In this document: in pieces, positions 5,377 to 19,121 of the stretch
Layout: every line of letters starts with the position of its first letter
How positions within the stretch are numbered: the stretch's first letter is position 1
Virus record (IMG/VR): IMGVR_UViG_3300021254_000030
From: a virus
Taxonomy: Duplodnaviria > Heunggongvirae > Uroviricota > Caudoviricetes
Strand: one strand, 5' to 3'
DNA length: 64,000 nucleotides
Position numbers and translations under genes: made by a program
The notes under the pieces: generated by a model
What the model was told of the DNA's origin: nothing
Database searches by the model: none
Seen by the model: the letters and a program-made list of their open reading frames with translations, nothing else

Positions 5377-5500
5377 TTGTGCAATTTGTACAAAAATTTT
5401 GGGAAAATAGGTGAAAAATTTGTGCAATTTTTTTTGAAAAAAATATTGACAATGGGTAGATTTTGTGGTATAATTGGGCGCGGGTCAGAGACACCGCGCC
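5377..5500 (+). promoter_or_regulatory. rightward operator-promoter-GC-hairpin module (copy 1)
   Basis: Inverted repeat TTGTGCAATTTGTACAAA ... AAATTTGTGCAA, then TTGACA 5446-5451, a 17-nt spacer, TATAAT 5469-5474 and hairpin GGCGCGGGTC..ACCGCGCC at 5477-5500. Antisense to the leftward gene at 5568-5732. Confidence 0.5.
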
Positions 5501-5567
5501 GACGATTGTTAAAATTTTAACAGTATGTAGATATAAAAAAGGCAGGGCTTCCGCCCCGCCTGTATGG

Positions 5568-5732
5568 ATTAAACACTATAAAATTTAAAATCATGTGTCA
5601 CGCACCAGTAAGCAAAAAAGCACTGTCCATTATGATTAAGTAAACACTCTTTGCAATGAGAGTTATTTTTAACAATCTCTTCCAAAATAGCGTTAAGCAT
5701 TTCTGCGGATTGAATAGTTAATGTAGTATTCA
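5568..5732 (-). CDS. small hypothetical protein (54 aa)
   Basis: ATG at 5732, MNTTLTIQSAEMLNAILEEIVKNNSHCKECLLNHNGQCFFAYW. Followed by the terminator CAGGCGGGGCGGAAGCCCTGCC plus a T-run. Confidence 0.35.
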
Positions 5733-5832
5733 TTTTTTAATCTCCCATAAAACATGTACATGACCGAATCGGAAAAGGACTTTGTAAAAGTCCCATCCTA
5801 TTCTGATTTTACCTTTTTCTTTCTCAGGAAGT

Positions 5833-6000
5833 TTAATTATCTTCATCATCATCATCAATATTCCATTCATTGGGGCTTCTATATTCTCCAGAAATCTCAA
5901 AACAATATTTTTCAAAAGGACAGCCACAACAAACCTCTGTCTCCAGACATGCTTTTTTGATAATTTTCATACCTACTCTCATTTTATTTTTCCAATCCAT
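5833..6000 (-). CDS. small Cys-rich acidic protein (55 aa)
   Basis: RBS AGGAGTAAAAA before ATG at 6000. MDWKNKMRVG...CCGCPFEKYC...DDDDEDN. Preferred over the overlapping track ORF 5730..5927 on RBS and composition. Confidence 0.35.
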   Translation of the reverse strand: MDWKNKMRVGMKIIKKACLETEVCCGCPFEKYCFEISGEYRSPNEWNIDDDDEDN

Positions 6001-6003
6001 TTT

Positions 6004-6159
6004 TTACTCCTCTTCATCATCACAAATAGGATTTATATCTATATCATAGGAGGGGTGAGTGTCACAGGCAAACATGCGTTCCGCCTGATTTATTGCATCC
6101 CACTTATCAACTGCATCATCAATAGAATAAGTAATACAGATTGTTACATCATATTTCAT
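6004..6159 (-). CDS. small acidic hypothetical protein (51 aa)
   Basis: ATG at 6159 overlaps the upstream TGA (ATGA). Ends DDEEE. Confidence 0.35.
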   Translation of the reverse strand: MKYDVTICITYSIDDAVDKWDAINQAERMFACDTHPSYDIDINPICDDEEE

Positions 6160-6374
6160 CTTGTTTTCTCCCTTGCCATATCGTTAAATTTCTGCCAAAT
6201 GCCCTCTTCGCCTTCCCAAAATCTCTCAAGGTCATCGTAGGGAAGAAACTTCTGTGCAAACATAACAACGCCGAAAGCCTGCGCGCGGAAGTTTAAAACA
6301 GATTCAGCAGTTGTAGCATCTTTCGCATAGCGGAGCATTTTTTCTACGAAATCCTTTACATCATTCATGGTCAT
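6156..6374 (-). CDS. hypothetical protein
   Basis: 72-aa track ORF with RBS and promoter cassette upstream. Confidence 0.45.
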   Translation of the reverse strand: MTMNDVKDFVEKMLRYAKDATTAESVLNFRAQAFGVVMFAQKFLPYDDLERFWEGEEGIWQKFNDMAREKTR

Positions 6375-6549
6375 TGTCGTTTATCTCCTTTCCTCTTGTT
6401 GATAATATAAGTATACCAAAATATTGGGAAAATGCAATAGGTAATGTTGCACAAAAATGCGATTTGATTTTTGGCGAAGGTGACTATTGACATGATTTTG
6501 GGCGCTGTCTCAATGGACAGCGCCCCGCCCAAAGAAGCGGGGCTTAATA

Positions 6550-6774
6550 TCACTGTTCAAGCAGTCTTTCTGCTATACGCCTTATCACAAATTTTTCTGT
6601 ATTATCAATTTCTTTTTCGTTATTCTCAATAAAAATGTCAGCTTCAGAAAGACAACAAAAAGAACTTAAAATGGCGCCAGTATATTCTTCATATATTACG
6701 GAAAGAACCTCTTCAACGATTTCATCAATATTAATATCAATATTTTTAGAACCAATAACAAAAGCCATAATCAA
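6550..6774 (-). CDS. hypothetical protein
   Basis: 74-aa track ORF. Terminator hairpins GCCCCGC..GCGGGGC downstream. Confidence 0.45.
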   Translation of the reverse strand: MIMAFVIGSKNIDINIDEIVEEVLSVIYEEYTGAILSSFCCLSEADIFIENNEKEIDNTEKFVIRRIAERLLEQ

Positions 6775-6968
6775 AACTCCTTAAAAACTTCTTTTTGACA
6801 ATCAGGGCACAGACCAGAAACAAAGCGTTCGCGGTCAGTAGGTGACATATGCGGGAAAGCATCCTGCACAAGTTCGCCAGACTGGTATGTAAGATACTGT
6901 TCAAAGTCAACAGTAAGTTCATGTTCACAACCGCAGATAGGACAAGTAAAAAGAATTGTAATATCCAT
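6771..6968 (-). CDS. zinc-ribbon protein (CxxC...CxxC)
   Basis: CPICGC...CPDC in 65 aa. ATGA overlap with the next gene. Confidence 0.45.
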   Translation of the reverse strand: MDITILFTCPICGCEHELTVDFEQYLTYQSGELVQDAFPHMSPTDRERFVSGLCPDCQKEVFKEF

Positions 6969-6979
6969 TTTATACTCCT

Positions 6980-7297
6980 TTACTCAAATATAAAACAATT
7001 ACTATTATCCATCTCTAATGTCGTAGAATCACAACCATAGCTATCACTATCAGAGGCTTCACTATAGGCATAATCGGTATTAAACTCATACTTAATTGTA
7101 ACATCAGCATCAACAAGAGCCCGATAGACTTTGATGAAATCAGCAATTAAATGCTGTCGTTTCTGAGCCTTCCTTTTTTCAACTTCCTTTTGTAGAGTAC
7201 CAATAGCAGATTGAAGAGTTGCAATAGAAATGTCAAGGTTGGAATCATCCTGTTTGCAAGCATCATTGATGAAATTGTAAAGAGCTTCATTTTCCAT
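6980..7297 (-). CDS. hypothetical protein
   Basis: 105-aa track ORF. Confidence 0.45.
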   Translation of the reverse strand: MENEALYNFINDACKQDDSNLDISIATLQSAIGTLQKEVEKRKAQKRQHLIADFIKVYRALVDADVTIKYEFNTDYAYSEASDSDSYGCDSTTLEMDNSNCFIFE

Positions 7298-7299
7298 TT

Positions 7300-7464
7300 T
7301 TATTCCCCCTTTTTAATTTTTAAATCATAAAAAATGTAAGAAATTAAATCTAACATAAATTCTTTTTCATCATCGGTTGTGGCTTCATTATTACCCAACT
7401 TAACAAGAGCGTCTAAAAGAGATAAAGAAAAATCTTTACTAAGATTGTATGTTATTTTTTTCAT
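7300..7464 (-). CDS. small hypothetical protein (54 aa)
   Basis: ATG at 7464, MKKITYNLSKDF..., upstream of 6980..7297 in an operon-like arrangement. Confidence 0.3.
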   Translation of the reverse strand: MKKITYNLSKDFSLSLLDALVKLGNNEATTDDEKEFMLDLISYIFYDLKIKKGE

Positions 7465-7530
7465 TTTGTTTTTTCCTTTCCTGTTGATAAGTATAGTATA
7501 TCAGATTATAGGAAAAATACAATAGACAGG

Positions 7531-7620
7531 TTGCACAAAAAGTTAAATGAAAATTTGTTGATTATGTATATTGACACAAAACTTGGCGCGCCTGGGTTGT
7601 AGGCGCGCCAGCCTTAGGAA
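7531..7620 (+). promoter_or_regulatory. rightward promoter-like element with GGCGCGCC hairpin (copy 2, weaker -10)
   Basis: TTGCACAAAA operator half-site, TTGACA 7571-7576, hairpin GGCGCGCC TGGGTTGTA GGCGCGCC at 7584-7608. Confidence 0.35.
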
Positions 7621-7956
7621 GTTATCCTAAAGCCGGCATAGCCTTTTATCTGCTCCATCTTGTAAAGATGAAAGCAAGAACAACAGCAACAAGAATATAA
7701 GCAGTGCCAAGGTGAGGCTGAGAACCAGGGTAATAATAATACAACATTAATCTTCCTCTCTTTCTTTCTTTTCATAGTGGTTACAGGCGAAAACCGTCAT
7801 ATCACCTTTTTCGCAAATGTCGCAGTCACAGCAACCCTCTTTGCGTTTAACGCAATCTTTACAGAGACAGCACATACATGTTATATTATTCATTTTTTTT
7901 TATTTCCTTTCTTTTGATAATATTATTTTATTAAATTTTTTATTTTTTGTCAACTG

Positions 7957-8250
7957 TTACACTGTGGTATCAACACCACAGAGTAACAGAACATAACAAA
8001 TGCAAGTGAAAGCGAACGGCCCCATTTTAGTAGGAATAACATCATAAACATTTGGATATAATTCCTCAATACCTGTTAAGAGCATTCCGCCCCAATTACC
8101 GCCACAAGCTACACAATGACCAAGAAAATCAGTCATAGTACCACGAAAAGGATTAACAGTAAAAGCGGTTTCAATAACTTTTTTACCATTTTCTCCCCAG
8201 TTTTCAACAAGATAATTCTGTGCTTCAATAATCATATCGTAAGTAATCAT
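7957..8250 (-). CDS. hypothetical protein
   Basis: Track ORF trimmed to ATG at 8250 (MITYDMIIEAQ) with RBS AAAGGAAAT. Confidence 0.45.
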   Translation of the reverse strand: MITYDMIIEAQNYLVENWGENGKKVIETAFTVNPFRGTMTDFLGHCVACGGNWGGMLLTGIEELYPNVYDVIPTKMGPFAFTCICYVLLLCGVDTTV

Positions 8251-8349
8251 AATTTTATTTCCTTTCTGTTGTTTTCTTCTTGACAATTATTATTATATCA
8301 AATAATGGGAATAATACAATAGGCAAAATAAACAAAAAATAGATAAAAA

Positions 8350-8408
8350 AATTGTTAAACATTACATATTGACAAAAAAAAATGGCGCGCCTGGGTTGTA
8401 GGCGCGCC
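8350..8408 (+). promoter_or_regulatory. GGCGCGCC hairpin element (copy 3, promoter weak)
   Basis: TTGACA 8371-8376 then hairpin GGCGCGCC TGGGTTGTA GGCGCGCC, with the same loop as copy 2. Confidence 0.3.
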
Positions 8409-8450
8409 AAAAAAGGCTACCACTCTATAAAGGGTGGTAGCCCTGTAAAA

Positions 8451-8855
8451 TTACTCGACATCAGTCTCGCCGTCAGCGTCAGCGTCAGGGGCAACAAAAT
8501 CAATCCCCTGGACGGCGTAGAAAGTCTTTTTCTTAAAGACCTTCTTCTGCACCTGGCCCGCCTTTACAAGCTGACCCAGCAGGGCGCCAACCTTCTGCAC
8601 GCTGTACTCGGCCATGCGGTCATCGTCACGGATAGCAGTCATGGTGACGAACTCTTCAGCCTCGCCAAGGATGTCAAGGATGACCGCCTTCAGCTCCTCG
8701 TTCAGCTTCTGCGTCTTAGTCGGACCGCCCTTGCTTCCACGCTTTGCCAGCTGTGCGGACAGAGCCTTCAGACGCTCGGTAGCCTCTGCATTGGTGTCAC
8801 CGATAGCGGTAAGTGCGATTGCGATTGCCTGTGCGTAAGTCATAGTGTTGGTCAT
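8451..8855 (-). CDS. paralog-family protein 1 (about 130 aa, acidic C-terminus)
   Basis: MTNTMTYAQAIAIALTAIGD...KRGSKGGPTKTQK... Shares about 50-60% identity with 12053..12454 and 14329..14712. Own promoter TTGACA-17 nt-TATAAT on the minus strand (plus coordinates 8908-8936) and terminator GGCTACCACTCTATAAAGGGTGGTAGCC. Confidence 0.55.
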   Translation of the reverse strand: MTNTMTYAQAIAIALTAIGDTNAEATERLKALSAQLAKRGSKGGPTKTQKLNEELKAVILDILGEAEEFVTMTAIRDDDRMAEYSVQKVGALLGQLVKAGQVQKKVFKKKTFYAVQGIDFVAPDADADGETDVE

Positions 8856-9314
8856 AATGAATACCTCTTCCTTTCAAATGCTTTTGTTTTGTTATCTTAT
8901 GTATTTATTATAGCAAAGTTTTTTTTATTTGTCAATAGTTTTTTTATTTTTTTTCGGGCGGATGGCGCGCACATCCTTTTTTAGCCCTACCCATGTATTT
9001 GTGTCATTGCGGATGGGCGTCCGCTCAACTACTAAACTTCATAGGCTTCTCCTTTGCCTAGTCCCTCGTTTCACTGTAATAAGTATATCACAGTGGTTCT
9101 TCCGTGTCAAGCCTTTTTTAGTAATTTTTTAGGTTTCGCTTTGCGGTCGTTCCATGGCACTAACGGCAAAGGTACTTTTCGGGGCTGTGCTAACCGTCTT
9201 GACTTTCGGCTCTCTCCCTCTCTCATTTTGTAATTAAATTATAACAGAATTTTTTTTATTTTGCAAGTACGAATATCGGGAAATTTTTTATCGGAAATTT
9301 GTTTAAAGTTTTAC

Positions 9315-9377
9315 TTGACAAATAGGCTGGAGTTGTGGTATAATGGATTTTTGGCGCGCATCGGTCGATGCGCGCCC
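9315..9377 (+). promoter_or_regulatory. rightward promoter plus GC hairpin (copy 4)
   Basis: TTGACA 9315-9320, TATAAT 9339-9344, hairpin GGCGCGCATCG GTC GATGCGCGCC at 9353-9376. Confidence 0.5.
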
Positions 9378-9408
9378 GACCAGTTTTTTATACCAGTCGG
9401 GCGTATTT

Positions 9409-9603
9409 TTATTTCTTAATTTTAATAGAATCTAAAATACTGTTATATAAATTAGTATAATCATCGTTACTCATAGCCAAAAAAGCCTTTGCTCCAAAAA
9501 AGTTTTCAAGAACTTTATTAACAGCTTCTATTGCTTCGGTGCAAAGGTCTTTTGAATCAAAACTAATTGAAAAGATTTTCTTTTCCGCATCATAATTAAA
9601 CAT
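9409..9603 (-). CDS. hypothetical protein
   Basis: Track ORF. Paralogous C-terminus with 9623..9826 (LYNSILDSIK versus LFNAILDAVK). Terminator CCCGACTGGTATAAAAAACTGGTCGGG. Confidence 0.45.
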   Translation of the reverse strand: MFNYDAEKKIFSISFDSKDLCTEAIEAVNKVLENFFGAKAFLAMSNDDYTNLYNSILDSIKIKK

Positions 9604-9622
9604 TCTTAATCCCCCTTTTCAA

Positions 9623-9826
9623 TCACTCATAATCAAAGTTTTCATTCTTTTCTTTTACGGCATCAAGGATTGCATTGAAGAGTTCTGCGAAGTTATTAGC
9701 AGGAAGATATACATCTGCATGCCCGTAAACGGTTTTAATAGCTACAAGGGCTCGCTCATAAATTTCATCTGTTAATTCATCCGGAATTGTCAGGTTAAGG
9801 TTGTTAAAAGTGATAGTTTTATCCAT
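9623..9826 (-). CDS. hypothetical protein
   Basis: 67-aa track ORF. Confidence 0.45.
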   Translation of the reverse strand: MDKTITFNNLNLTIPDELTDEIYERALVAIKTVYGHADVYLPANNFAELFNAILDAVKEKNENFDYE

Positions 9827-9829
9827 ATG

Positions 9830-10054
9830 TTACTCTCCTTCCTCTTCTTCTTCTGTGAAATCTAATTCTCTTAATTTTTCATAGCCCCATTTATCAAGAG
9901 CATTAGTTACTTCGCCAAGCAAACAAACATAAAAGAAATCAAATGTTTCATTACACTGAAGATTTTCAGGAACTTCAGTATCATAAACTTTAATCATTTC
10001 TAATATAGCTTTAGCACTGGCTTGACGGATATGACGAATTTCAGCAGGTGTCAT
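9830..10054 (-). CDS. hypothetical protein
   Basis: 74-aa track ORF with acidic tail. Confidence 0.45.
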   Translation of the reverse strand: MTPAEIRHIRQASAKAILEMIKVYDTEVPENLQCNETFDFFYVCLLGEVTNALDKWGYEKLRELDFTEEEEEGE

Positions 10055-10100
10055 GTTTTTATCTCCTTTGCTTTTGTTGATGATATTATTATATCATTTT

Positions 10101-10274
10101 TCAATAAGAAGTCAATACCTTTTTTAAAAAAAGTTTGTCTTTTCTGCGGGCGGCCCTGCGGAAACGCTTCTCTAAAGCATTTTTATTAGCATCGTGGGGA
10201 AGAATCTGTCGGCAGTTTAAAGCCCATGCCGTCATGTTTTTTACTGTTAATCTCTTGAAATAATCTTTAGTCAT
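10101..10274 (-). CDS. small basic hypothetical protein (57 aa)
   Basis: ATG at 10274, MTKDYFKRLTVKNM... Confidence 0.3.
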   Translation of the reverse strand: MTKDYFKRLTVKNMTAWALNCRQILPHDANKNALEKRFRRAARRKDKLFLKKVLTSY

Positions 10275-10370
10275 TTTATTTCCCCCTTTCTGAATAAAAG
10301 TATATCAAAAAATAAAGAAAAAGTCAACTATTTTGGGAAAAATATTTTTTATTTTTTTCTGCGGAAAAGC

Positions 10371-10444
10371 CTTGACAAAAAGACACACGTGTGATATAAT
10401 GGAAAACTTGGCGCGCGGCAGAGTGCAACGGCCAGCCGCGCGCC
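10371..10444 (+). promoter_or_regulatory. rightward promoter plus GC hairpin (copy 5)
   Basis: TTGACA 10371-10376, a 17-nt spacer, TATAAT 10394-10399, hairpin TGGCGCGCGGC...GCCGCGCGCCA at 10408-10444. Confidence 0.55.
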
Positions 10445-10465
10445 ATTCACATATATGAACTACAT

Positions 10466-10505
10466 ACGGGTAAAAAATCCAGTAAACTGAAATTCAGTTT
10501 ACTGG
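10466..10505. terminator. intrinsic terminator
   Basis: CCAGTAAACTGAAATTCAGTTTACTGG hairpin with flanking A/T runs. Confidence 0.5.
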
Positions 10506-10515
10506 ATTCAGTGGT

Positions 10516-10902
10516 TTACTTTTTAGGGGGGCGGTGCTTAACCAGTTTGACGGTATACGAATTACCGTTGAAGGTGAAACTGAATTCCGCTTCGTTCTTC
10601 ACACTGGACACCGCACCGCCGAACGCTTCAACGGCTGTTTTGATTGCGGTCAGCAGACCACCCTTTTCCGTATCCACCTTGCGCTCCCTCGTTGTTTTCT
10701 TCCTGGGGGCGTCAGACTTTTCATATCGTCTGTTGGCTTTTGCTTTTTCGGTCATGGCGTCCGCTTCCTCGTTGCTGATGTAATCATGGTCATCGAGCCA
10801 TGTTTCGATAGCCTCTTGAGTGGACAGGTCAAGGCTTGTTTTCAGCTTTTCAATATCCTTGTCAGGGATATTAATATCTTTCCCATTGAAATTGAATTTC
10901 AT
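10516..10902 (-). CDS. hypothetical protein
   Basis: 128-aa track ORF. Confidence 0.5.
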   Translation of the reverse strand: MKFNFNGKDINIPDKDIEKLKTSLDLSTQEAIETWLDDHDYISNEEADAMTEKAKANRRYEKSDAPRKKTTRERKVDTEKGGLLTAIKTAVEAFGGAVSSVKNEAEFSFTFNGNSYTVKLVKHRPPKK

Positions 10903-10971
10903 TTGAAACCCCCTTTAAAAACGGCTTTTTTGTTTTTCTATAAAAAATTTTATCAAAAAATTTTTATTTTG

Positions 10972-12784: not shown

Positions 12785-12905
12785 ACACAAATTACGGGAT
12801 CTGGACAGAGATAAGTTTGTGCAGTTTTTCGCTTGACAAAATCTCCAGCGTGTGTTATAATTGAAATTTCGCGGCGCGGTCGAGTGAAGCGTACGACCGC
12901 GCCGC
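12785..12905 (+). promoter_or_regulatory. rightward operator-promoter-GC-hairpin module (copy 7)
   Basis: Inverted repeat ACACAAATTACGGGATC...TTTGTGCAG. TTGACA 12833-12838, a 17-nt spacer, TATAAT 12856-12861, hairpin GCGGCGCGGTCG...CGACCGCGCCGC at 12871-12905. The minus-strand terminator GGGGGCTAATAAGCCCCC (12919-12936) follows. Confidence 0.55.
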
Positions 12906-12945
12906 GGGCAAAAAAAATGGGGGCTAATAAGCCCCCTATCTGAAC

Positions 12946-13395: not shown

Positions 13396-13457
13396 TTTGT
13401 TATCTCCTTTCCTTTTGTTGATTATATATTATCACGTTACATGGAATTTGTCAATAG

Positions 13458-13682
13458 TTATTTTAAAAAATTTATGATTAAAGCAAGTGTCAATCCGCTA
13501 AAAATTGCATCTTTTACTTTGTCCGCAACTGGATTCTTTATGATGAATCCTCTTGTAAACATAATAATATTGGATACAAGATAGCAAGATTGCCCTAAAA
13601 GGTAATATTTACCAATTGTAATTTGAGCAATAGCAAGCAAAGCGATAACAAAATACATAGAATTTTCAGCAATTTTTTTCAT
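13458..13682 (-). CDS. small membrane protein
   Basis: Two hydrophobic helices in 74 aa. Confidence 0.4.
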   Translation of the reverse strand: MKKIAENSMYFVIALLAIAQITIGKYYLLGQSCYLVSNIIMFTRGFIIKNPVADKVKDAIFSGLTLALIINFLK

Positions 13683-13737
13683 TTTATTGTCTCCTTCTCC
13701 TTTGATAATTATATATTATCATACATTGGAGAGGTTG

Positions 13738-14076
13738 TCAAGTAGTTTCTTCCCAATCTTTAGGATTATACTGTAAAGACAACCATACTTGCATAGACAC
13801 ATTGCGCGGTCTGCCTTTCTTTTCCCATTCTCCATTAGGCATATGCCAGTTTTCCCAAAACCAGATAGAAGGATTGTCTTTTATTGTTCTTTTTCCAGAT
13901 TTACAACCTTTTGCCATGTTCCCGGCATTAGGACTAACAGATAACGCCCATTTCTCCCACGCATGATAGACTTTATGGACAAAAGAAGAAAATTCTGGAA
14001 AAGTATAAATAGAAATAAGTAGCGAAGCAATATCTCTTTCAGTCAGATTCTTAGTAATATATTCAAAATTTGTCAT
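13738..14076 (-). CDS. hypothetical protein
   Basis: Track ORF trimmed to MTNFEYITKNL. Confidence 0.45.
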   Translation of the reverse strand: MTNFEYITKNLTERDIASLLISIYTFPEFSSFVHKVYHAWEKWALSVSPNAGNMAKGCKSGKRTIKDNPSIWFWENWHMPNGEWEKKGRPRNVSMQVWLSLQYNPKDWEETT

Positions 14077-14162
14077 TTTGCTATCTCCTTTTATTTTTTG
14101 TGCTTTCCTCTTGACAATTATTATTATAAGGGATAGGCTCAAAAAACACAATAGACAGAATG

Positions 14163-14285
14163 TACAAATTTCGGGATCAAATTTTGTTTATTTTTTTATC
14201 ATTTTTCTCTTGACAAAAAGGCCGGCGGTATGGTATAATGGAATCCCGGCCCGCAGCGGAGCCAAACGCGCAGCCGCGGGCCGGG
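14163..14285 (+). promoter_or_regulatory. rightward operator-promoter-GC-hairpin module (copy 8)
   Basis: TACAAATTTCGGGATC half-site. TTGACA 14210-14215, TATAAT 14234-14239, GC hairpin 14246-14285. Terminator GGGGTAGCAACTTTTAAGGTTGCTACCCC at 14291-14320. Confidence 0.5.
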
Positions 14286-14328
14286 CACAACAGGGGTAGC
14301 AACTTTTAAGGTTGCTACCCCTTTGAGT

Positions 14329-14712
14329 TTATTGGTCAGCATCCTCTGCGGAAGCATCGTCCGCAAGGGAGTAGACCACATGCTTCTTATCCTTGCCCTT
14401 GACGACCTTGCCGTCCTGAGCAAGCTGACGAATCAGTGCCCCGAGTTTCTGGGTGGACATACCGTCAGGCAGTCGGGGGTCAGAAATCAGCTTGGACATG
14501 CCGACAGGCTCTTCCGCCTCTGCGAGAATATCGAGAATCATGCTCTTGAGGACTTCGTTCTCTTTCTGGGTCTTGGTAGGGCCACTCTTGCTTCCACGTT
14601 TTGCCAGCTGTGCCTTGAGGGCTTCCAATCTCTCCTGGGCGTCCTTATGGGAGTCACCCATAACCTCAAGTGCAACGTTGATAGCTTCTGCATAAGTCAT
14701 AACATTTGCCAT
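14329..14712 (-). CDS. paralog-family protein 3
   Basis: MANVMTYAEAINVALEVMGDSH...KRGSKSGPTKTQKENEVLK. Confidence 0.55.
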   Translation of the reverse strand: MANVMTYAEAINVALEVMGDSHKDAQERLEALKAQLAKRGSKSGPTKTQKENEVLKSMILDILAEAEEPVGMSKLISDPRLPDGMSTQKLGALIRQLAQDGKVVKGKDKKHVVYSLADDASAEDADQ

Positions 14713-14943
14713 AGTGTTTTTCTCCTTTTCTGATGTGAAGTTTTGTTTTCCTTTGATGATGTTATTATATCAAAGTTTTAAGTTTCTGTCAAGGCTTTTT
14801 TTGAAAGTTTTTTCAACTTTTTCTATCAAGCATCCCACCAGATACATACGCCCGTAGCGGAATACCTGCCCAGTAAGTGATTTCCTTTCCCTTACCTTGT
14901 AAATACATTATAGCAAAATTTTTTAAAATCCGCAAGTCGGAAT

Positions 14944-15070
14944 ATTGCACAAATTACGGGATCGTAAGTGTTCAAAGTTTGTGCAAATTGCCGATTGATT
15001 TTTTTCTGGTGGGGGTGGTATAATTGAATTTTCGCCGCGCGGTCGCTAGGGACGTACGACCGCGCGGCGG
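14944..15070 (+). promoter_or_regulatory. rightward operator-promoter-GC-hairpin module (copy 9)
   Basis: Inverted repeat TTGCACAAATTACGGGATC...TTTGTGCAA. TTGATT 14994-14999, TATAAT 15018-15023, hairpin CGCCGCGCGGTCG...CGACCGCGCGGCG at 15033-15070. Confidence 0.5.
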
Positions 15071-15114
15071 GCAAAAAAAGGCAGAGGAATTATCCTCTGC
15101 CTTGTGGGGGAAGA

Positions 15115-15288
15115 TTACCTTCCCTGTTTGATGAAGCAACCCAGGCACTCGAAAGTGCCGTCCCCGACCTGCTTAACGCCCGACAGATTCAGAATGAACA
15201 GCCCGCAGGACTCGATAGCCTGACGGATAACAGGAGCCTCGATAGAAGCGGCGTTGATAGTGACAGAGTAGATTGCGAAATTCATCAT
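15115..15288 (-). CDS. small hypothetical protein
   Basis: Track ORF trimmed to MMNFAIYSV. Terminator AAGGCAGAGGAATTATCCTCTGCCTT downstream. Confidence 0.4.
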   Translation of the reverse strand: MMNFAIYSVTINAASIEAPVIRQAIESCGLFILNLSGVKQVGDGTFECLGCFIKQGR

Positions 15289-15713
15289 AGCTTTTTCTCC
15301 TTTTCTGTTGTGGTGTTTTTGATGATTCAATTATACTGTAAAAGATTTGCTTTGTCAATAAATTTTTACTAACACCGCAAAACTTATTAATCGCAGACTA
15401 CGGTATGGCTAACCGACAAGGAATCCAACCTTTACAATTAAAAGCCTGTGCACCGACTTATAATTGCTAATAAGTTTTGCCGTGTTAGTAAAAATTTATT
15501 GCGTCCATCCTACCAGCCTGGGGGTTCCAGACGCTCCCCGCATGTTGCCTCACATTTATATACCGCAAAGTAGGACTTCGACTTGCGGTGGTGGGACTTT
15601 ATCAGGAAGACTTACTGCGACAACTGGGCGTCTTGGGATTCCGTTCCCTTGCTTCCTTCCCTCACCTTATGTATTTATTATAGCACCTTTCGGCAACTAT
15701 GTCAATACCTTTT

Positions 15714-15935
15714 TTATTTTATTATCAAAAGATGATGATTAGGTAAATTGTGATGCCATACTTTAATGACTAAATCGTCACTCCATCCGGAAAAAGTATC
15801 CATAAAGGCGGTTTTATTAAGATAATAGGTTTTAGGAAAAAGTCCCTTTTCTTTATTAGCTTCCTCTGAACGAAGTGCAAAAACAGCTTCTTCATCATTA
15901 CCAAGAAAATCAATCCATTCTTTAACTGTTCTCAT
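15714..15935 (-). CDS. hypothetical protein
   Basis: Track ORF trimmed to MRTVKEWIDF with RBS AGAGGAAAGTAAT. Confidence 0.45.
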   Translation of the reverse strand: MRTVKEWIDFLGNDEEAVFALRSEEANKEKGLFPKTYYLNKTAFMDTFSGWSDDLVIKVWHHNLPNHHLLIIK

Positions 15936-16010
15936 ATTACTTTCCTCTCTGTGCTTTCCTCTTGACAATTATTATTATAGCAGATTTTAATAAAAACACA
16001 AGTGGTAATA

Positions 16011-16133
16011 ATGCACAAATTACGGGATCTAAAAGGATTGATTTTTGTTTATTTTTCCTATTGACAAAAAGGCTGGCGGTATGGTATAATGAAAAGACAC
16101 CCCGCGCTGGCTGAGGGGCGCGCCAGCGCGGGG
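16011..16133 (+). promoter_or_regulatory. rightward operator-promoter-GC-hairpin module (copy 10)
   Basis: ATGCACAAATTACGGGATC half-site. TTGACA 16061-16066, TATAAT 16085-16090, hairpin CCCCGCGCTGGC..GCCAGCGCGGGG at 16100-16133. Confidence 0.55.
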
Positions 16134-16183
16134 CGGGCAAAAATCCATCCCCTATTTTTATAGGGGATGGAACAGAAAGGGGT

Positions 16184-16384
16184 TTACGCCTTAGGAGCGA
16201 CCGCCTTGAAGCGGACAAAGGGATGACGCTTGCCGGACTTGATGGCTTCCGCAAGGTACTTTTCCCTTGCCTCTTTTTCATCAGGGGGAGTGATTTCTAC
16301 AAGCTGAACGTATTTCTCGGGGAAAGGCATGTCCTTAACATCGTCATAGGTGAACAGGCCGCCAGCGTAGATAACTTTTCTCAT
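16184..16384 (-). CDS. hypothetical protein
   Basis: 66-aa track ORF. Early promoter TTGACA-17 nt-TAGAAT and RBS AAAAGGAGAAAATACT upstream. Terminator TCCATCCCCTATAAAAATAGGGGATGGA. Confidence 0.5.
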   Translation of the reverse strand: MRKVIYAGGLFTYDDVKDMPFPEKYVQLVEITPPDEKEAREKYLAEAIKSGKRHPFVRFKAVAPKA

Positions 16385-16447
16385 AGTATTTTCTCCTTTT
16401 CTTTTGATGATTATATTCTATCAGATAGAAAGTCTTTTGTCAATCCC

Positions 16448-16627
16448 TTAATTCATAATATATAAGGTTTTTCCGTCATGGCTCTTCCACAGTTCCCGAT
16501 GGTCCTTAGTAAAGCCCAAAAAAGAGACGGGGATATTCAGAACGGCGATAGTCTTAACCTGAATGTCAGGGTTTAAGTGATGCTTCTTTATAATCTCATT
16601 TTTTTCTTTCTTAGAAATCAGTGCCAT
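16448..16627 (-). CDS. small hypothetical protein
   Basis: Track ORF trimmed to MALISKKEKNEII with RBS AAAGGAGACC. The longer track version runs through the tandem repeats. Confidence 0.35.
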   Translation of the reverse strand: MALISKKEKNEIIKKHHLNPDIQVKTIAVLNIPVSFLGFTKDHRELWKSHDGKTLYIMN

Positions 16628-16649
16628 GTCAGGTCTCCTTTCTATTGTC

Positions 16650-16760
16650 ATATAGGCGGAAAGCACCACAGGTCTGTATGTGGATACCATACTTTCCGCA
16701 TATGAGAGAGCCACAGGTCTGTATGTGGATACCGCATCTCTCTTGGGGAGCACCACTGGT
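16650..16760. repeat. three tandem copies of a roughly 38-bp repeat (CCACAGGTCTGTATGTGGATACC core)
   Basis: Direct repeats at about 16653, 16698 and 16737, upstream of 16448..16627. Confidence 0.5.
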
Positions 16761-16844
16761 CTGTAGGTGGCGGATACCTTAGCTCCCCTCTGTGATTATA
16801 TATTAACATACCCTAGGGCCAAATGCAAGCATTTTTTATAAAAA

Positions 16845-16968
16845 TATTGCACAAAATTATGGGATTTCAACGTCTGACCTTTGTGCAGATTTCCAACTTG
16901 ACAAAATCTCAGCCACATGATATAATGGAACTTCGGGCCGCGGCGGTGAGAAGCAGTCCGCCGCGGCC
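16845..16968 (+). promoter_or_regulatory. rightward operator-promoter-GC-hairpin module (copy 11)
   Basis: Inverted repeat ATTGCACAAAATTATGGGAT...TTTGTGCAG. TTGACA 16897-16902, a 17-nt spacer, TATAAT 16920-16925, hairpin GGGCCGCGGCGG...CCGCCGCGGCCC at 16934-16968. Confidence 0.55.
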
Positions 16969-16994
16969 CGGCCAAATAGCCAGACCGCGGTTTT

Positions 16995-17183
16995 TTATTC
17001 CTCGTCATCCCAATCATCAGCTTCAAGAGCCATAGTCATCAGATGCGTGAGTTTTGTCTCATTCATTTCAGGGTCAAGTTCAACTTCATGGCAGAACCAG
17101 ATCGTGATAGGGTCTTCAAGACCAAGAACCTTTGCTACATTATCCATTGCCATGTTATTTCTATTAGTGATGTAATCTGTCAT
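16995..17183 (-). CDS. small acidic hypothetical protein
   Basis: 62-aa track ORF. Confidence 0.45.
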   Translation of the reverse strand: MTDYITNRNNMAMDNVAKVLGLEDPITIWFCHEVELDPEMNETKLTHLMTMALEADDWDDEE

Positions 17184-17464
17184 TTTTTTTATCTCCTTTC
17201 CTTTACTGTAATTATATTATATCAAAAAATTCTTTTTTTGTCAATAGTCTGGATTGATTTTTTTCATTTTTTGACGATTATAATCCTTTTTAGACTTGTG
17301 CGTGCGGATTCCAGTATTAAAAGGAATCAAAACACGTTTCTGTGCGTTTTTTGCTTTCCGCACCTTTTTGTTTTCGTTAATAGCCATGATCGTTATTCTC
17401 CTTTCTCTTGATGATTATATTATATCAAAGGGCTTGGCTTTTGTCAAGCCCTTTTTTAATTTTT

Positions 17465-17764
17465 TTAAATTTTATTATATCCTGCTTTCATATGCTCCAT
17501 AGCAAGATTGATAATGCTCTGCGGAGCCTCGCCCTCTGCATAGTACCGTCTAATCTGATTCGGTCTTGCAATAAGGATTGTAATCATGATTCCGGTCCTT
17601 TTGTTATATACGAGTACCAATCCGGTAGAAGTAACCTTATGGACTTCCGGCCCGTTCTTGTGGCCACGGTCTACAGTGACCTCTTTTATGATCTGTCCCA
17701 TCCCAATCTGGGCAATGATGTGGCTACGTCTCTGTCTGTCCTCTCTCCAGTGCCTACTTGTCAT
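17465..17764 (-). CDS. hypothetical protein
   Basis: 99-aa track ORF. Confidence 0.4.
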   Translation of the reverse strand: MTSRHWREDRQRRSHIIAQIGMGQIIKEVTVDRGHKNGPEVHKVTSTGLVLVYNKRTGIMITILIARPNQIRRYYAEGEAPQSIINLAMEHMKAGYNKI

Positions 17765-17831
17765 TTTTGTGTACCCCCTTCCTTTATCTTATGTACACAT
17801 TATACACCACAGAGCGGGCGCTGTCAAGCAA

Positions 17832-17962
17832 AATATTGCACAAAATTATGGGATTGTCGCCTCAGATTTTTGTGCAAATTTCCGACTTGATTTTTTTGGC
17901 ACAGTATGTTATAATGGCAACTCGGCGCGGCCTGGTCTGAAATGGCCAAGCGCGCGCCGCGC
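17832..17962 (+). promoter_or_regulatory. rightward operator-promoter-GC-hairpin module (copy 12)
   Basis: Inverted repeat ATTGCACAAAATTATGGGAT...TTTTGTGCAA. TTGATT 17887-17892, TATAAT 17910-17915, GC-rich inverted repeat 17923-17962. Terminator GGGGGAGCGTTTGCTCCCCC. Confidence 0.5.
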
Positions 17963-17995
17963 AAAAAGGGGGAGCGTTTGCTCCCCCTGGCCTCA

Positions 17996-18142
17996 TTACT
18001 GGTGGCTCTTTTTGTAGTTTGCCATGGCGTTTTCGTATACCCACTGGACACCCTCTTTGGAATCTCTCATAAGCCTCTTCGCATTGGCTTCATCCACCAG
18101 TCCGTATGCCTTCAGTTCCTGAACCATTGCTTTCTTTGTCAT
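17996..18142 (-). CDS. small hypothetical protein (48 aa)
   Basis: ATG at 18142, MTKKAMVQELKAYGLVDEANAKRL. Conserved early promoter cassette upstream. Confidence 0.35.
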   Translation of the reverse strand: MTKKAMVQELKAYGLVDEANAKRLMRDSKEGVQWVYENAMANYKKSHQ

Positions 18143-18237
18143 TTTGTGTACCCCTTTCTTTTATGTTGTTTGTTTTCCTTTGATGATTATATTATATCGT
18201 ATGGGGGTTGTTTTGTCAACCCCCTTTTTTAATTTTT

Positions 18238-18426
18238 TTAACGAATTTCTACTTCAGTCCTTGTATATTTATAATCTTTATACATTGCATCGCCTTTTTT
18301 ATGAAAATAAACCTTTACCTTTTCACCATCTTCATAGCAACGAGGGTTGCAACCGTTTACTACGTTGACATTACCATGCTCTTTTTCAATTGCTTCAAGT
18401 GTTTCAATAAGTTCTCTGATAGTCAT
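18238..18426 (-). CDS. hypothetical protein
   Basis: 62-aa track ORF. Confidence 0.45.
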   Translation of the reverse strand: MTIRELIETLEAIEKEHGNVNVVNGCNPRCYEDGEKVKVYFHKKGDAMYKDYKYTRTEVEIR

Positions 18427-18559
18427 TTTAAATCTCCTTTTAATTTGATCGGTTGTTTGTTTTCCTTTGATGATTATATTATAGCATAGTCTGGAATAAA
18501 GTCAATAGTTTTTTTAAAAAAATAAAAAAATTTTTTTGAAAAAAATTTCATTTTTCCTC

Positions 18560-18628
18560 TTGACAATTGGCTGTCACGTGTGGTACAATATTTCGGCCTG
18601 CAGCGGCCGCGCTGGCTGGCTCTGGCCA
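18560..18628 (+). promoter_or_regulatory. rightward promoter plus GC-rich element (copy 13, no operator)
   Basis: TTGACA 18560-18565, an 18-nt spacer, TACAAT 18584-18589, then GGCCTGCAGCGGCCGCGCTGGCTGGCTCTGGCC, which contains a NotI site. Confidence 0.45.
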
Positions 18629-18714
18629 CAAGATTGTTTGTTAATTAACTAACAAAGTCTGTGCATTAAAAAACCAGTTTTTTATAGTTGACTGGAAACA
18701 ACTGTTGTGAGTTA

Positions 18715-18927
18715 TTATCTTGCAAGATACTTGAGAACAATGATTAAGCTGTTGTAGTCAAGTGCGATTAACTCGATCGGTTCACCATTCTGAAGTCTAT
18801 CTTTGAAGCCGAAAAAGTCTCGCCTCAAATCTTCAATCTCCTCTTTTGTCCATGTCTTTGCGCTCTTTTCGAGGGTATTAAGATTGGCTTTGTAAAGGTC
18901 CTTGCAATTAGCTGTTGTGAATGTCAT
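18715..18927 (-). CDS. hypothetical protein
   Basis: 70-aa track ORF. Confidence 0.45.
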   Translation of the reverse strand: MTFTTANCKDLYKANLNTLEKSAKTWTKEEIEDLRRDFFGFKDRLQNGEPIELIALDYNSLIIVLKYLAR

Positions 18928-19040
18928 TTTTTTATCTCCTTTTTTGTTGTGTGTGTTTTGTTTTCCTTTGTTGATTATATATTACATCATTATTAGATAA
19001 ATTGCAATAGGTAAAATGAAAGTTTTTATCATTCTCTGTT

Positions 19041-19121
19041 TTGCACAAAAATAGGACTTTTCAGGTTGTTTATTTTGTGCAATTTTCCCTCTTGATAATA
19101 GCAGGTCATATAATGTATACT
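19041..19121 (+). promoter_or_regulatory. operator-promoter module without GC hairpin
   Basis: Inverted repeat TTGCACAAAAATAGG...TTTTGTGCAA, then TTGATA 19092-19097 ... TATACT 19116-19121. Confidence 0.4.

Follow-up and report, generated by a model that had tools for sequence, protein, structure and literature searches.

Initiation of antisense transcripts close to intrinsic terminators is found in both E. coli and B. subtilis (PMC6978322). When a unidirectional terminator is paired synthetically with an antisense promoter, the gene upstream is repressed to a degree proportional to the strength of that promoter, and this repression acts via collisions and antisense RNA (PMC4731013). A further point of comparison is provided by the PeSLs, 'mobile regulatory cassettes' of T4-like phages (PMC2839356, PMC4122927). 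Here, we describe a promoter-hairpin cassette that is kept across a clade of related phages, a design with no earlier description, and that looks like a built-in antisense brake, one per early operon.

The source is an uncultured gut siphophage of Firmicutes, about 130-140 kb in size, with TAG recoded in its late genes. In the stretch analysed (the window, 64 kb), the early genes between 5.4 and 19.1 kb all run leftward, and rightward genes are absent from this region. Its GC content is 35-42%, rather than the 30% given for the genome in a preliminary description of the sequence. That description counted about 13 complete rightward modules of operator, promoter and hairpin. The core module proves to be real, non-random and conserved, but the three-part completeness of every copy was overstated: the region holds 12 rightward sigma-A-type promoters, 10 with a robust GC hairpin, one with a weak hairpin and one with none. 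Beyond these lie three GC hairpins that lack a -10 box and one orphan.

Antisense promoters and GC-rich hairpins

The rightward units are as follows, with promoters given from the start of the -35 box to the end of the -10 box.

Unit 1, 5446-5500, plus strand: TTGACA-17-TATAAT at 5446-5474, GC hairpin 5477-5500
Unit 2, 9315-9415, plus strand: promoter 9315-9344, GC hairpin 9353-9376, plus-strand terminator hairpin 9374-9402 with T-run; predicted RNA about 60 nt
Unit 3, 10372-10445, plus strand: promoter 10372-10400, GC hairpin 10409-10445; no upstream palindromic site
Unit 4, 11803-11865, plus strand: promoter 11803-11832, GC hairpin 11841-11865; directed into the tRNA-Asn gene and paralogue B
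Unit 5, 12833-12906, plus strand: promoter 12833-12861, GC hairpin 12870-12906 with 13-bp stem; 5' domain -44.9 kcal/mol, z -6.3
Unit 6, 14210-14321, plus strand: promoter 14210-14239, imperfect GC hairpin 14245-14285, terminator-like plus-strand hairpin 14293-14321; predicted RNA about 80 nt
Unit 7, 14995-15069, plus strand: promoter 14995-15024 (-35 box TTGATT), GC hairpin 15033-15069; z -9.0
Unit 8, 16061-16133, plus strand: promoter 16061-16090, GC hairpin 16100-16133
Unit 9, 16898-16991, plus strand: promoter 16898-16926, GC hairpin 16934-16970, whose right arm competes with an alternative plus-strand terminator hairpin, 16960-16991, with T6
Unit 10, 17887-17959, plus strand: promoter 17887-17915, imperfect GC hairpin 17923-17959
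Unit 11, 18560-18627, plus strand: promoter 18560-18589, poorly folding GC-rich segment 18595-18627; no palindromic site
Unit 12, 19092-19121, plus strand: promoter with palindromic site, no hairpin; directed into AT-rich repeats and iterons

The promoters bear out the expected TTGACA-N17/18-TATAAT pattern: eight of the 12 match the consensus at all 12 positions, and all but the one at 19092 carry an extended -10 TG. They are on the other strand from the early genes and are kept in about 17 related phages. Promoter-like sites followed by sequence of at least 65% GC are confined to the plus strand (9 of 28, versus 0 of 31 on the minus strand), and perfect GC stems of 7 bp or more occur in the whole 64 kb only between 5477 and 19719, so the earlier view that these hairpins are not a product of chance stands. 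Fold z-scores, computed on the hairpin or the 5' domain, are -2.0 for the unit at 11841 and between -3.1 and -9.0 for the other nine, versus -0.2 for the segment at 18595. Perfect palindromes are present in many copies, though not in each as had been claimed: those of units 6 and 10 are imperfect, that of unit 11 is poor, and unit 12 has none. Likewise, the hairpin usually starts 7-8 nt past the -10 box, close to the 6-8 nt first described, but the range in the window is 2-9 nt. The 2-nt case is unit 1, and its orthologues in the related loci L002, L003 and L006 are equally short. With a hairpin only 0-2 nt past the -10 box, the RNA from these leftmost units could not hold the whole stem, which counts against an antisense RNA capped by the hairpin.

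Four GC hairpins stand apart from the rightward promoters. The first three are preceded by TATTGACA alone.

6500-6525, unstranded: TATTGACA before it, no -10 box; this type recurs in relatives with a sense-strand promoter on its other side
7584-7610, unstranded: TATTGACA before it, no -10 box; AGTTTTGT follows on the minus strand, so it may be a leftward terminator
8383-8409, unstranded: TATTGACA before it, no -10 box; T9 follows on the minus strand, so it can serve as a second leftward terminator
19689-19719, unstranded: orphan in an ori-like region, leftward terminator-like, TTTTGTTAA following on the minus strand; counterpart in L003 at 19909

Palindromic sites upstream of the promoters

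The preliminary description took the upstream operator to be one long inverted repeat. Instead, there are two separate sites per full cassette, each a 16-bp near-palindrome (AAATTTG-TG-CAAATTT) that precedes a -35 box by 8-9 bp. One copy belongs to the antisense promoter and the other to the sense promoter that diverges from it and serves the next operon, and TTTGTGCAA stands at this distance ahead of -35 boxes on both strands. The window has 11 exact copies of TTTGTGCAA, all of them between 5.4 and 19.1 kb.

5376-5427, unstranded: site cluster at the left edge of the region, with sites at 5376, 5385/5386 and 5419
6447-6455, minus strand: single site 8 nt upstream of a sense promoter, at the boundary of promoter-less hairpin 6500
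7531-7539, minus strand: single site 8 nt upstream of a sense promoter, at the boundary of promoter-less hairpin 7584
11753-11794, unstranded: site pair between divergent promoters, TTTGTGCAG on each strand, 33 bp apart
12783-12824, unstranded: site pair, ACGGGATC beside the left site
14160-14191, unstranded: degenerate site pair, TGTACAAA with TTCGGGATC, and TTTGTTTAT
14945-14986, unstranded: site pair, exact TTTGTGCAA, ACGGGATC beside the left site
16011-16052, unstranded: site pair, right arm degenerate (TTTGTTTAT)
16847-16888, unstranded: palindromic site pair
17836-17877, unstranded: site pair, exact TTTGTGCAA; consensus sense promoter 17827-17799 lies 8 nt downstream of the left site
19041-19082, unstranded: site pair, exact TTTGTGCAA

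The inverted repeat is thus not a feature of every copy. Both arms occur in six modules (11841, 12870, 15033, 16934, 17925 and 19121), whereas module 5477 has an irregular cluster of site copies, the right arm is degenerate in modules 14247 and 16100, module 9353 is weak, and no inverted repeat was found upstream of modules 10409 and 18595.

Sense promoters and terminators in both directions

On the leftward strand the cassettes adjoin the sense promoters and intrinsic terminators of the early operons, and a few terminators face the other way.

14907-14935, minus strand: divergent sense promoter, TTGCGG-17-TATAAT, with its site 9 nt upstream
7495-7522, 12744-12772, 14123-14151, 15974-16001 and 17799-17827, minus strand: other divergent sense promoters
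12919-12936, minus strand: unidirectional sense terminator adjoining a GC hairpin
5540-5561, 8414-8443, 10477-10507, 11880-11901, 15078-15103, 16144-16171 and 17968-17987, minus strand: other sense terminators adjoining GC hairpins
17427-17454, plus strand: rightward intrinsic terminator; its hairpin contains the -35 box of sense promoter 17447-17419
18203-18224, plus strand: rightward intrinsic terminator enclosing the -35 box of sense promoter 18219-18191
8960-8976, plus strand: weaker rightward terminator just right of sense promoter 8935-8907
10974-10992, plus strand: weaker rightward terminator similar to that at 8960

The sense terminators beside the hairpins are called on the minus strand only. 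A canonical leftward terminator adjoins seven modules (5477, 10409, 11841, 12870, 15033, 16100 and 17925), which upholds for these the earlier placement of every copy just outside such a terminator; none adjoins modules 9353, 14247, 16934 and 18595. Leaders from the sense promoters are unstructured and polypurine: their first 45 nt fold in most cases at about 0 kcal/mol, a few being exceptions, in contrast to the antisense 5' hairpins, which fold at about -17 to -35 kcal/mol. The terminator at 18203 would stop the RNA of unit 10 after about 300 nt, and the design seen at 17427, a rightward terminator enclosing a sense -35 box, also occurs in L004, L005, L006 and L008. Rightward terminators inside sense promoters indicate that at least some antisense RNAs would be discrete units.

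Conservation and selection on structure

Across the window and 24 related IMG/VR loci there are 78 antisense promoter-hairpin units, and only 11 hairpins have a sense-strand promoter. The gap from the -10 box to the hairpin is 7-8 nt in 63% of the 78 units and 6-9 nt in 88%, so the hairpin begins at about the expected RNA start. Stems differ among copies and orthologues yet remain paired: in a set of 13 sequences, both sides have changed in 10 of 13 pairs, and 96% of cells are paired versus 74% in shuffles. Pairs of G with U are nearly absent, with neither strand favored (46 versus 39 of about 1190 pairs), and folding energy is equal on both strands; the stems alone are therefore silent on which strand is read. 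The loops do differ by strand, with 62% purine on the antisense strand versus a background of 47%, a bias found on that strand only (57 units above 50% and 13 below; Wilcoxon p = 5e-9).

A ribosome-binding site plus open reading frame lies downstream in just two of the 78 units. A plus-strand terminator lies within 900 nt in 44 units, 13 of these within 125 nt; in the remaining 34, no recognisable rightward terminator was found within 900 nt. The antisense RNA with a 5' stabilising stem-loop that was first proposed fits the conserved opposite-strand promoters, the hairpin at the expected 5' end, the covarying stems, the purine loops and the rightward terminators in a region without rightward genes, although some units would yield RNAs of only 50-125 nt.

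A proposed antisense brake and its alternatives

On balance, we somewhat favor the view that the cassettes are regulated terminator/antisense-promoter units, making hairpin-capped antisense RNAs that damp or insulate single early operons. Each boundary between two leftward early operons would be a composite regulatory cassette. Its parts, in rightward order on the plus strand, are a leftward sense promoter that serves the next operon; a palindromic, putative protein-binding site of 16 bp, 8-9 bp upstream of the sense -35 box; a second site copy, 8-9 bp upstream of a rightward consensus promoter of the host sigma-A type with extended -10; a GC-rich hairpin starting at about the expected start of the rightward transcript; and, directly after it, the unidirectional intrinsic terminator of the preceding operon. 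Host RNA polymerase would use the rightward promoter, and a hairpin would form immediately at the 5' terminus of the RNA, leaving hardly any unpaired leader or none, which in Firmicutes is expected to block 5'-end-dependent decay of untranslated RNA. Rightward, the sense terminator has no U-tract, so polymerase would read through it, antisense into the operon, and the transcript would end either after 50-125 nt or at a terminator lying within the promoter of that same operon. Expression of this one operon would be lowered or insulated by colliding polymerases or an occluded promoter, and by the stable antisense RNA pairing with the mRNA in its 3' portion, and a factor bound at the shared site would couple the brake to the next operon's promoter. 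Against a brake, consensus antisense promoters would be expected to be active as soon as infection starts and then to oppose early expression. The three hairpins with no -10 box, the 34 units with no recognisable rightward terminator within 900 nt and the 28 of 78 in which the A-run of an adjacent sense terminator is missing also count against it.

An unlikely alternative is that the hairpins are boundary elements of the leftward transcripts (a back-up terminator, 3'-end protection or a GC clamp past the U-tract), with promoter-bound polymerase mainly a termination-enforcing roadblock and the antisense RNA irrelevant. Watson-Crick stems with almost no G-U and no strand bias would suit this role, as would the T-rich minus-strand tails at hairpins 8383, 7584, 10409, 16100 and 19689, the three window hairpins that lack a -10 box, the overlap of the leftmost hairpin with its predicted start site, and, in 38 of 78 units, an A-run for the sense U-tract that begins no more than 6 nt from the hairpin. 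However, most units continue on the minus strand after the hairpin with A-rich AAATTTCC or AAAATCC rather than a U-tract, and in 28 of 78 the A-run of the adjacent sense terminator is missing. Moreover, the position of the hairpin varies less with respect to the antisense -10 box than with respect to the terminator, the purine bias of the loops is confined to the antisense strand, and plus-strand terminators would be pointless without rightward transcripts.

The short hairpin RNA could itself be the product, a dozen abundant, very stable 5'-triphosphate GC hairpins of 50-130 nt that titrate a host factor (an RNase, a double-stranded RNA binder or an RNA-sensing defence) or act in trans, the overlap with neighboring genes being incidental. 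Promoter and hairpin are indeed the only invariant features, the 13 units with a rightward terminator within 125 nt include 9353, 14247 and 16934 of the window, and a unit RNA of about 130 nt in L004, L005 and L006 overlaps no coding sequence. We nonetheless consider this improbable, since the hairpins share no common motif for one partner to recognise, most units lack a nearby terminator, and placement at operon 3' ends with terminators at sense promoters argues for cis action.

Equally improbable as the chief role is recombination, in which the cassettes, likened to PeSLs, would be repeats of about 100-190 bp that let early gene modules swap, duplicate or vanish, any antisense effect being secondary. 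The cassettes form a family of repeats with cross-matches at many positions in relatives, differences in gene content from L002 and L003 stop at promoter cassettes (9619|10320 and 13473|14055 among them), and a cassette stands ahead of each of three paralogous genes. Recombination needs sequence identity, whereas the hairpins keep structure rather than sequence, and it leaves the fixed -10/hairpin spacing, the consensus antisense promoter and the strand-specific loops unexplained; it is compatible with the antisense brake rather than an alternative to it.

In phage T7, DNA entry is driven by host polymerase. That rightward transcription acts here on the DNA, by pulling the genome into the cell, by boosting the divergent sense promoter through negative supercoiling or by activating a nearby origin, is very improbable: strong rightward promoters do recur every ~1 kb in a region without rightward genes, each back-to-back with a sense promoter of weaker -35 box, and the rightmost, at 19092, faces the AT-rich repeats and iterons, but terminators that end transcripts after 50-900 nt run directly counter to DNA pulling, and no variant requires the RNA to start with a palindromic hairpin.

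The phage and its early region

Between 24.6 and 58 kb, hardly any long ORFs are found with the standard code, and the late module is restored when TAG is read as sense. Across the window, 29 ORFs of at least 200 aa are obtained with TAG translated versus 13 with the standard code. The late module recovered in this way encodes a terminase, a portal and a sigma-like protein, and has a 2970-aa ORF that is probably the tape-measure protein. At 44-45% identity, the terminase matches its counterparts in phAss-1, Enterococcus phage H1 and Enterococcus phage EF1; SPbeta YonF is also related to it. Given this kinship and the recoding of TAG, the window is classed as a large Firmicutes siphophage among the 'code 15' gut phages. 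No known phage matched the window at the DNA level, no suppressor tRNA was found within its 64 kb, and the published account of the 'code 15' group (phAss-1) does not treat promoters or hairpins.

The region from 5.4 to 19.1 kb is a block of small leftward genes that uses the standard code and contains one tRNA-Asn gene, on the minus strand. Pfam searches with ten early proteins returned nothing useful. Elsewhere, iterons of 13-22 nt (TTTGTTAAAAATTTGGTGGTCC) at 3883-3970 and 4706-4760 flank an ORF with an in-frame TAG, at 3991-4713; the ORF and its flanking iterons look like an initiator gene with its binding sites.

Rightward promoters and GC hairpins

A consensus scan of the early block uncovered 12 rightward promoter-like sites, each matching 10-12 of the 12 consensus positions. 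Eight have TTGACA-17/18-TATAAT at all 12 positions, and all but the one at 19092 carry the extended -10 TG. All of the neighbouring genes run in the opposite direction; judged by sequence, the 12 sites, which are kept in relatives, thus lie on the strand opposite their target genes. When all 64 kb were searched for perfect stems with 7 bp or more and a GC content of 80% or higher, 13 GC hairpins were found, every one of them within 5477-19719, and folding detected three more that are imperfect. A robust hairpin follows 10 of the 12 promoters, with fold z-scores (computed on the hairpin or 5' domain) of -2.0 for the unit at 11841 and -3.1 to -9.0 for the others.

Chance and low complexity are ruled out as the source of these hairpins. 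The GC stems are confined to 22% of the window, and sequence of at least 65% GC comes right after 9 of 28 promoter-like sites on the plus strand versus 0 of 31 on the minus strand. The preliminary description, which had the rightward promoter-hairpin module repeating beyond chance, was right on this point and right that the repeated module is real, but it overstated the uniformity of the copies. Promoter 18560 is followed by a GC-rich segment that folds poorly, promoter 19092 has no hairpin, hairpins 6500, 7584 and 8383 are preceded by TATTGACA without a -10 box, and hairpin 19689 stands alone.

That orphan hairpin (19689-19719) is located inside an origin-like region, 19170-19720, with (TAT)n and (TTAT)n runs at 19206-19301 and GGATC/GAATC-containing iterons at 19400-19700. 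The sole cassette promoter without a hairpin (19092-19121) points into the same region. The promoter-less hairpin 7584, in turn, adjoins the end of a minus-strand gene, 7654-7755, for a 33-aa hydrophobic peptide (MLYYYYPGSQPHLGTAYILVAVVLAFIFTRWSR) similar to type I toxins. Toxins of that type are controlled by 3'-overlapping antisense RNAs.

Conservation in related loci

Relatives were collected with a putative exonuclease, an early protein encoded at 10972-11664, as the query; this gave 25 IMG/VR loci at 39-88% identity (given L numbers here and turned to the orientation of the window). One further early protein used as a query gave no relatives in IMG/VR. The same arrangement is present in L002-L013, L015 and L022-L025, and the window and relatives together contain 78 GC hairpins with a promoter in front on the antisense (plus, rightward) strand. 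A sense-strand promoter is found at only 11 hairpins, usually 4 nt off.

The spacing between antisense promoter and hairpin is tight. Of the 78 units, 63% have the hairpin foot 7-8 nt beyond the end of the -10 box, and a range of 6-9 nt covers 88%. A 5' stabiliser was taken to be a stable hairpin no more than about 4 nt from the 5' end of the RNA, with that end placed from the -10 box, and the predicted leader is 0-3 nt in 88% of the 78 units. The leftmost unit falls outside this limit, its hairpin beginning 2 nt after the -10 box and overlapping the predicted start site. A ribosome-binding site (RBS), start codon and ORF (at least 30 aa within 150 nt) occur downstream in only 2 of the 78 units, so the predicted RNAs are almost all without a protein product.

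The module is absent from the more distant loci L014, L016, L017 and L019-L021, the phAss-1 locus has no such hairpins, and the cultured Enterococcus phage H1 has one comparable unit only. Since the nearer loci have the module, the distant ones lack it and H1 has a single unit, it is on this comparison a lineage-specific, conserved trait. Indels between the window and L002 or L003 end at cassettes.

The hairpin as a probable part of a rightward RNA

Hairpin sequences vary among all copies and among orthologous positions, and complementarity is kept. A gap-free set of 13 hairpins (37 nt) had both sides changed in 10 of 13 pairs and no one-sided pair changes. Paired cells made up 96% of this set versus 74% in shuffles and at most 51% with the partner slid, a result toward which the set is biased by having been taken from perfect palindromes. 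A folding census of 99 units, with no perfect-palindrome filter, found about 4% G-U pairs and equal energies for the two strands. The G-U pairs are split 46 versus 39 by strand, which is uninformative as a strand indicator. With stems symmetric in both G-U pairs and energy, the folded strand is therefore not readable from the stems themselves.

Which strand, then, is folded? Loops on the antisense (plus) strand are 62% purine (G 38%, T 12%) versus 47% for that strand regionally, and loop purine is above 50% in 57 units and below it in 13 (Wilcoxon p = 5e-9, with orthologues not independent). The covariation and the plus-strand loop bias together indicate that structure is kept over sequence on the transcribed strand. 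We take the hairpin to belong to the rightward RNA, mainly because of this strand-specific loop bias and the tight spacing from the -10 box. The predicted 5' hairpins of the rightward RNAs have energies of about -17 to -35 kcal/mol. The sense leaders are unstructured and purine-rich, e.g. ATAATCATCAAAGGAAAACAAA...AAAGGAGA; the first 45 nt of most are at about 0 kcal/mol, with a few exceptions, and the start codon is 24-59 nt away.

Rfam 15, at gathering and E-value thresholds, identified only the tRNA-Asn, and the sub-threshold matches were generic hairpin shapes. Hairpin promoters of the kind used by N4-like virion RNA polymerase, and mimics of CRISPR repeats, are ruled out by sequences that differ in each copy and by the canonical -35 and -10 boxes that precede them.

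Terminators on both strands

Intrinsic termination at the GC hairpin was also considered, and is ruled out for most copies by the lack of a U-tract after the hairpin. The plus strand continues with GGGCAAAAAAA-type sequence and the minus strand mostly with AAATTTCC-type sequence; T-rich minus-strand tails occur only at hairpins 8383, 7584, 10409, 16100 and 19689. Canonical leftward terminators, with hairpin and T-run, abut 7 units of the window and were called on the minus strand only. Because these sense terminators, which end the preceding operon, have no U-tract in the plus direction, rightward polymerases should read through them. In 50 of 78 units the GC hairpin is followed by an A-run, which is the sense U-tract seen on the opposite strand. 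It begins no more than 6 nt away in 38 units, and a second hairpin comes after it in 47.

Rightward terminators are present even though the region has no rightward genes. One lies within 900 nt in 44 of the 78 units and within 125 nt in 13 of these. In units 9353 and 14247, terminators are 60-80 nt from the predicted start, and the RNAs may end before coding sequence; an alternative rightward terminator is possible for unit 16934. At two places, 17427-17454 and 18203-18224, a sense promoter has its -35 box inside the rightward terminator hairpin, and the same design, GGGG-TTGTCAA-CCCC plus a T-run, is found in L004, L005, L006 and L008.

A palindromic site shared by opposed promoters

Analysis of k-mer enrichment upstream of 93 antisense promoters revealed three elements. 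Counted from the first base of the -35 box, TTTGTGCA lies some 20 nt upstream, TTTYGGGA some 41 nt and TGCACAA some 49 nt.

With one mismatch allowed, TTTGTGCAA is found 8-9 nt upstream of the -35 box on the plus strand and 8-10 nt upstream on the minus strand, where 7 of the 12 copies in the window sit 8-10 nt upstream of a sense promoter. Together with its flanks it forms a 16-bp near-palindrome, AAATTTG-TG-CAAATTT. The window has 11 exact copies, all within the early region. The preliminary description had treated the repeat upstream of the rightward promoters as one long inverted repeat, an operator, and in this form the claim does not hold. The spacing of the two copies is 33 bp in the window versus 12-25 nt in relatives, with each site at a constant distance from its -35 box; the copies are therefore two separate sites, each of which probably serves one dimer. 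An exact operator string used as a query was not found in IMG/VR. What the sequence does contain is an operator-type feature, a conserved palindrome at a fixed promoter distance, with one site tied to the antisense promoter and the other to the next operon's sense promoter, the two promoters standing back to back. Because the site keeps its sequence while the hairpins keep structure only, it points to recognition by a protein. The shared site is also the obvious candidate for a control that would keep consensus antisense promoters from crippling early expression at time zero.

In L004 (5326-5500), L005 (1195-1380) and L006 (9387-9570), two consensus promoters are positioned face to face across one shared GC hairpin, with about 45 bp between the -10 boxes. 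Next comes a bidirectional terminator that has TTTGTGCAA-like sequence in its loop. In the GC-richer, distant loci L025, L015, L024 and L026, other repeated motifs are located before the hairpins, e.g. TTAACAC-N4-TTAACAC, TGCATAATTATGCA and TTGTAAC repeats. These motifs stand in for TTTGTGCAA, and sometimes also for the sigma-A boxes, with TTTCGGGAT retained. This pattern suggests an exchange of the regulator site with the cassette design unchanged.

One candidate considered for the regulator is the protein encoded by three paralogous early genes, which are 54-64% identical:

8451-8855, minus strand, winged-helix paralogue
12053-12454, minus strand, winged-helix paralogue
14329-14712, minus strand, winged-helix paralogue

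These genes have GC content above that of their surroundings, and each is preceded by an untranslated leader of 120-280 nt, transcribed from a second promoter further upstream. Structure prediction gives the protein a helical N-terminal part, a winged helix at the C-terminal end and a tail of acidic residues; two or three copies of the gene are present in nearly all of the related loci. The winged-helix fold is supported, but the protein is also present in relatives without the site; its distribution among the loci does not follow that of the site, and the assignment as cognate regulator was not adopted. A Z-alpha-like reading was dropped: fold-search matches were weak (E about 1e-2), winged helix-turn-helix matches were not family-specific, and the Z-alpha recognition pattern was not seen by eye.

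A proposed antisense layer

The cassette is most likely a natural module of unidirectional terminator plus antisense promoter. Host polymerase would begin at the foot of the hairpin and produce a hairpin-capped non-coding RNA, which would run convergently into the preceding early operon, at times up to its promoter. It is probable that the promoters are real and yield RNAs with a 5' hairpin. We are more tentative about the selected function, which may be operon-specific down-regulation or insulation. The fullest version of the model strikes us as rather doubtful. Here the phage would encode an antisense layer that controls operons singly: each early super-operon would be mirrored by a hairpin-capped unit, and one palindrome-binding factor would switch all units plus the next sense promoter. 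The layer would be built operon by operon, with an antisense promoter at the sense terminator and an antisense terminator inside the sense promoter.

If this model is true, it amounts to genome-wide shut-off of early genes, or feedback against their over-expression, in a clade of gut phages and with host RNA polymerase only. To our knowledge, the switching off or balancing of early genes in lytic phages that use host polymerase is known for only a few model phages, where it is protein-based. Our literature search found no account of an iterated, hairpin-capped, factor-linked antisense unit at every early operon. The function of bacterial antisense promoters is disputed because they are usually weak and poorly conserved. 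The antisense promoters described here have consensus strength and are structurally elaborated, and a phage clade has conserved about 100 copies of them. They therefore offer a natural test bed for asking if selection has shaped terminator/antisense-promoter modules as regulatory devices. In addition, the cassettes give Firmicute synthetic biology a small, transferable set of parts: promoter, 5' stabiliser and unidirectional terminator.

Comparison with known systems

Brophy and Voigt (2016) combined a terminator with an antisense promoter in synthetic E. coli constructs and found that the upstream gene is repressed in proportion to the strength of the antisense promoter; collisions contributed about as much as antisense RNA, and unidirectional terminators were needed (PMC4731013). 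Harden et al. (2020) reported antisense initiation beside intrinsic terminators in E. coli and B. subtilis, possibly by recycled polymerase, and noted that bacterial antisense promoters are poorly conserved (PMC6978322). The cassettes resemble the synthetic parts in having an antisense promoter just past a terminator that stops the sense direction only. Unlike the synthetic parts they are natural, and they number about 12 per genome and are conserved in a phage clade. They add consensus promoters, a 5' GC hairpin, a predicted shared protein-binding site and, in some units, an antisense terminator inside the sense promoter.

Short convergent non-coding RNAs with stable hairpins, which overlap the 3' end of their target and promote its decay, include lambda OOP (against cII) and the B. 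subtilis pairs RatA/txpA and SR4/bsrG. By analogy, the cassettes would likewise produce a convergent, hairpin-bearing non-coding RNA over the 3' end of the target. The known examples, however, are single loci serving one gene each, whereas there is one cassette per early super-operon and the RNAs are maybe much longer. OOP and the Firmicute 3'-overlap antisense RNAs, together with the PeSL cassettes described below, are the closest natural analogues. OOP is mentioned in PMC4933390. Antisense RNAs have also been reported for virulent phages such as PAK_P3, where early in infection they are directed at late genes (PMC4933390).

PeSLs (promoter-early stem-loops) of T4-like phages are repeats of a strong host-type promoter with a G/C-rich stem-loop, located in a plastic region between early genes that are small and for the most part of unknown function, and indels there are cassette-bounded (PMC2839356, PMC4122927). 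The PeSL promoter is codirectional with the genes and ends in a Shine-Dalgarno sequence, and the stem-loop mostly overlaps the promoter and terminates upstream transcription (PMC2839356, PMC4122927). The cassettes share the repeated host-type promoter and stem-loop, the intergenic placement in a plastic early region and the tie to modular exchange; indeed, they may account for modular gene exchange in TAG-recoded gut phages. They differ in orientation and in the terminator role, with an antisense promoter, no RBS and mostly no U-tract on either strand. Moreover, the hairpin here is at about +1, whereas the PeSL stem-loop usually overlaps the promoter.

Stem-loops at the 5' terminus, as in the ermC and aprE leaders, shield Firmicute RNAs from RNase J1 and RNase Y. 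Translated RNAs are guarded by ribosome binding near the 5' end, and untranslated ones need a 5'-terminal structure. Like these stabilisers, the cassettes place a very stable hairpin within a few nt of a predicted 5' end (positioned from the -10 box), in an untranslated RNA, but the stems are much longer and more GC-rich than stabilisation needs. The apparent division of labour, hairpins on antisense RNAs versus polypurine, RBS-rich sense leaders, fits the Firmicute decay rule by analogy.

In phi29, with p4 at A2c/A3, and at the face-to-face pR/pL promoters of coliphage 186, a regulator sits between or across opposed promoters; the 186 arrangement was reportedly treated by Callen in 2004, a study cited in PMC4731013. 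The cassettes similarly have predicted regulator sites between back-to-back promoters on opposite strands, and the face-to-face promoters about 45 bp apart in L004, L005 and L006 recall 186 pR/pL. Unlike either switch region, the arrangement is repeated at every operon boundary, and the site is centred near -50, which is no classical activator or operator position.

Other features of the early region

A non-coding stretch on the minus strand, 15356-15716, lies downstream of the sense promoter at 15705-15677 and may be a new structured RNA; it had no match in Rfam. Within it, 15500-15716 is 91-92% identical to L002 and L003, versus about 70-80% for neighbouring DNA, and a 34-nt inverted repeat (15356-15389 / 15468-15501) adjoins this conserved part. 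On the minus strand 3' of the tRNA-Asn gene (11903-11916), the tRNA transcript runs on into CCTCCTTTCT before its terminator. This sequence is the same as the anti-Shine-Dalgarno end of Firmicute 16S rRNA, and L003-L008 keep its complement, 'agaaaggagga', at the corresponding position. The sequence could be an anti-Shine-Dalgarno mimic, or just an RBS on the other strand. Finally, three direct repeats of about 30 nt, with core CCACAGGTCTGTATGTGGATACC and a spacing of 42-45 nt, are found at 16659-16775, in the leader of the operon beginning at the 16847 boundary.
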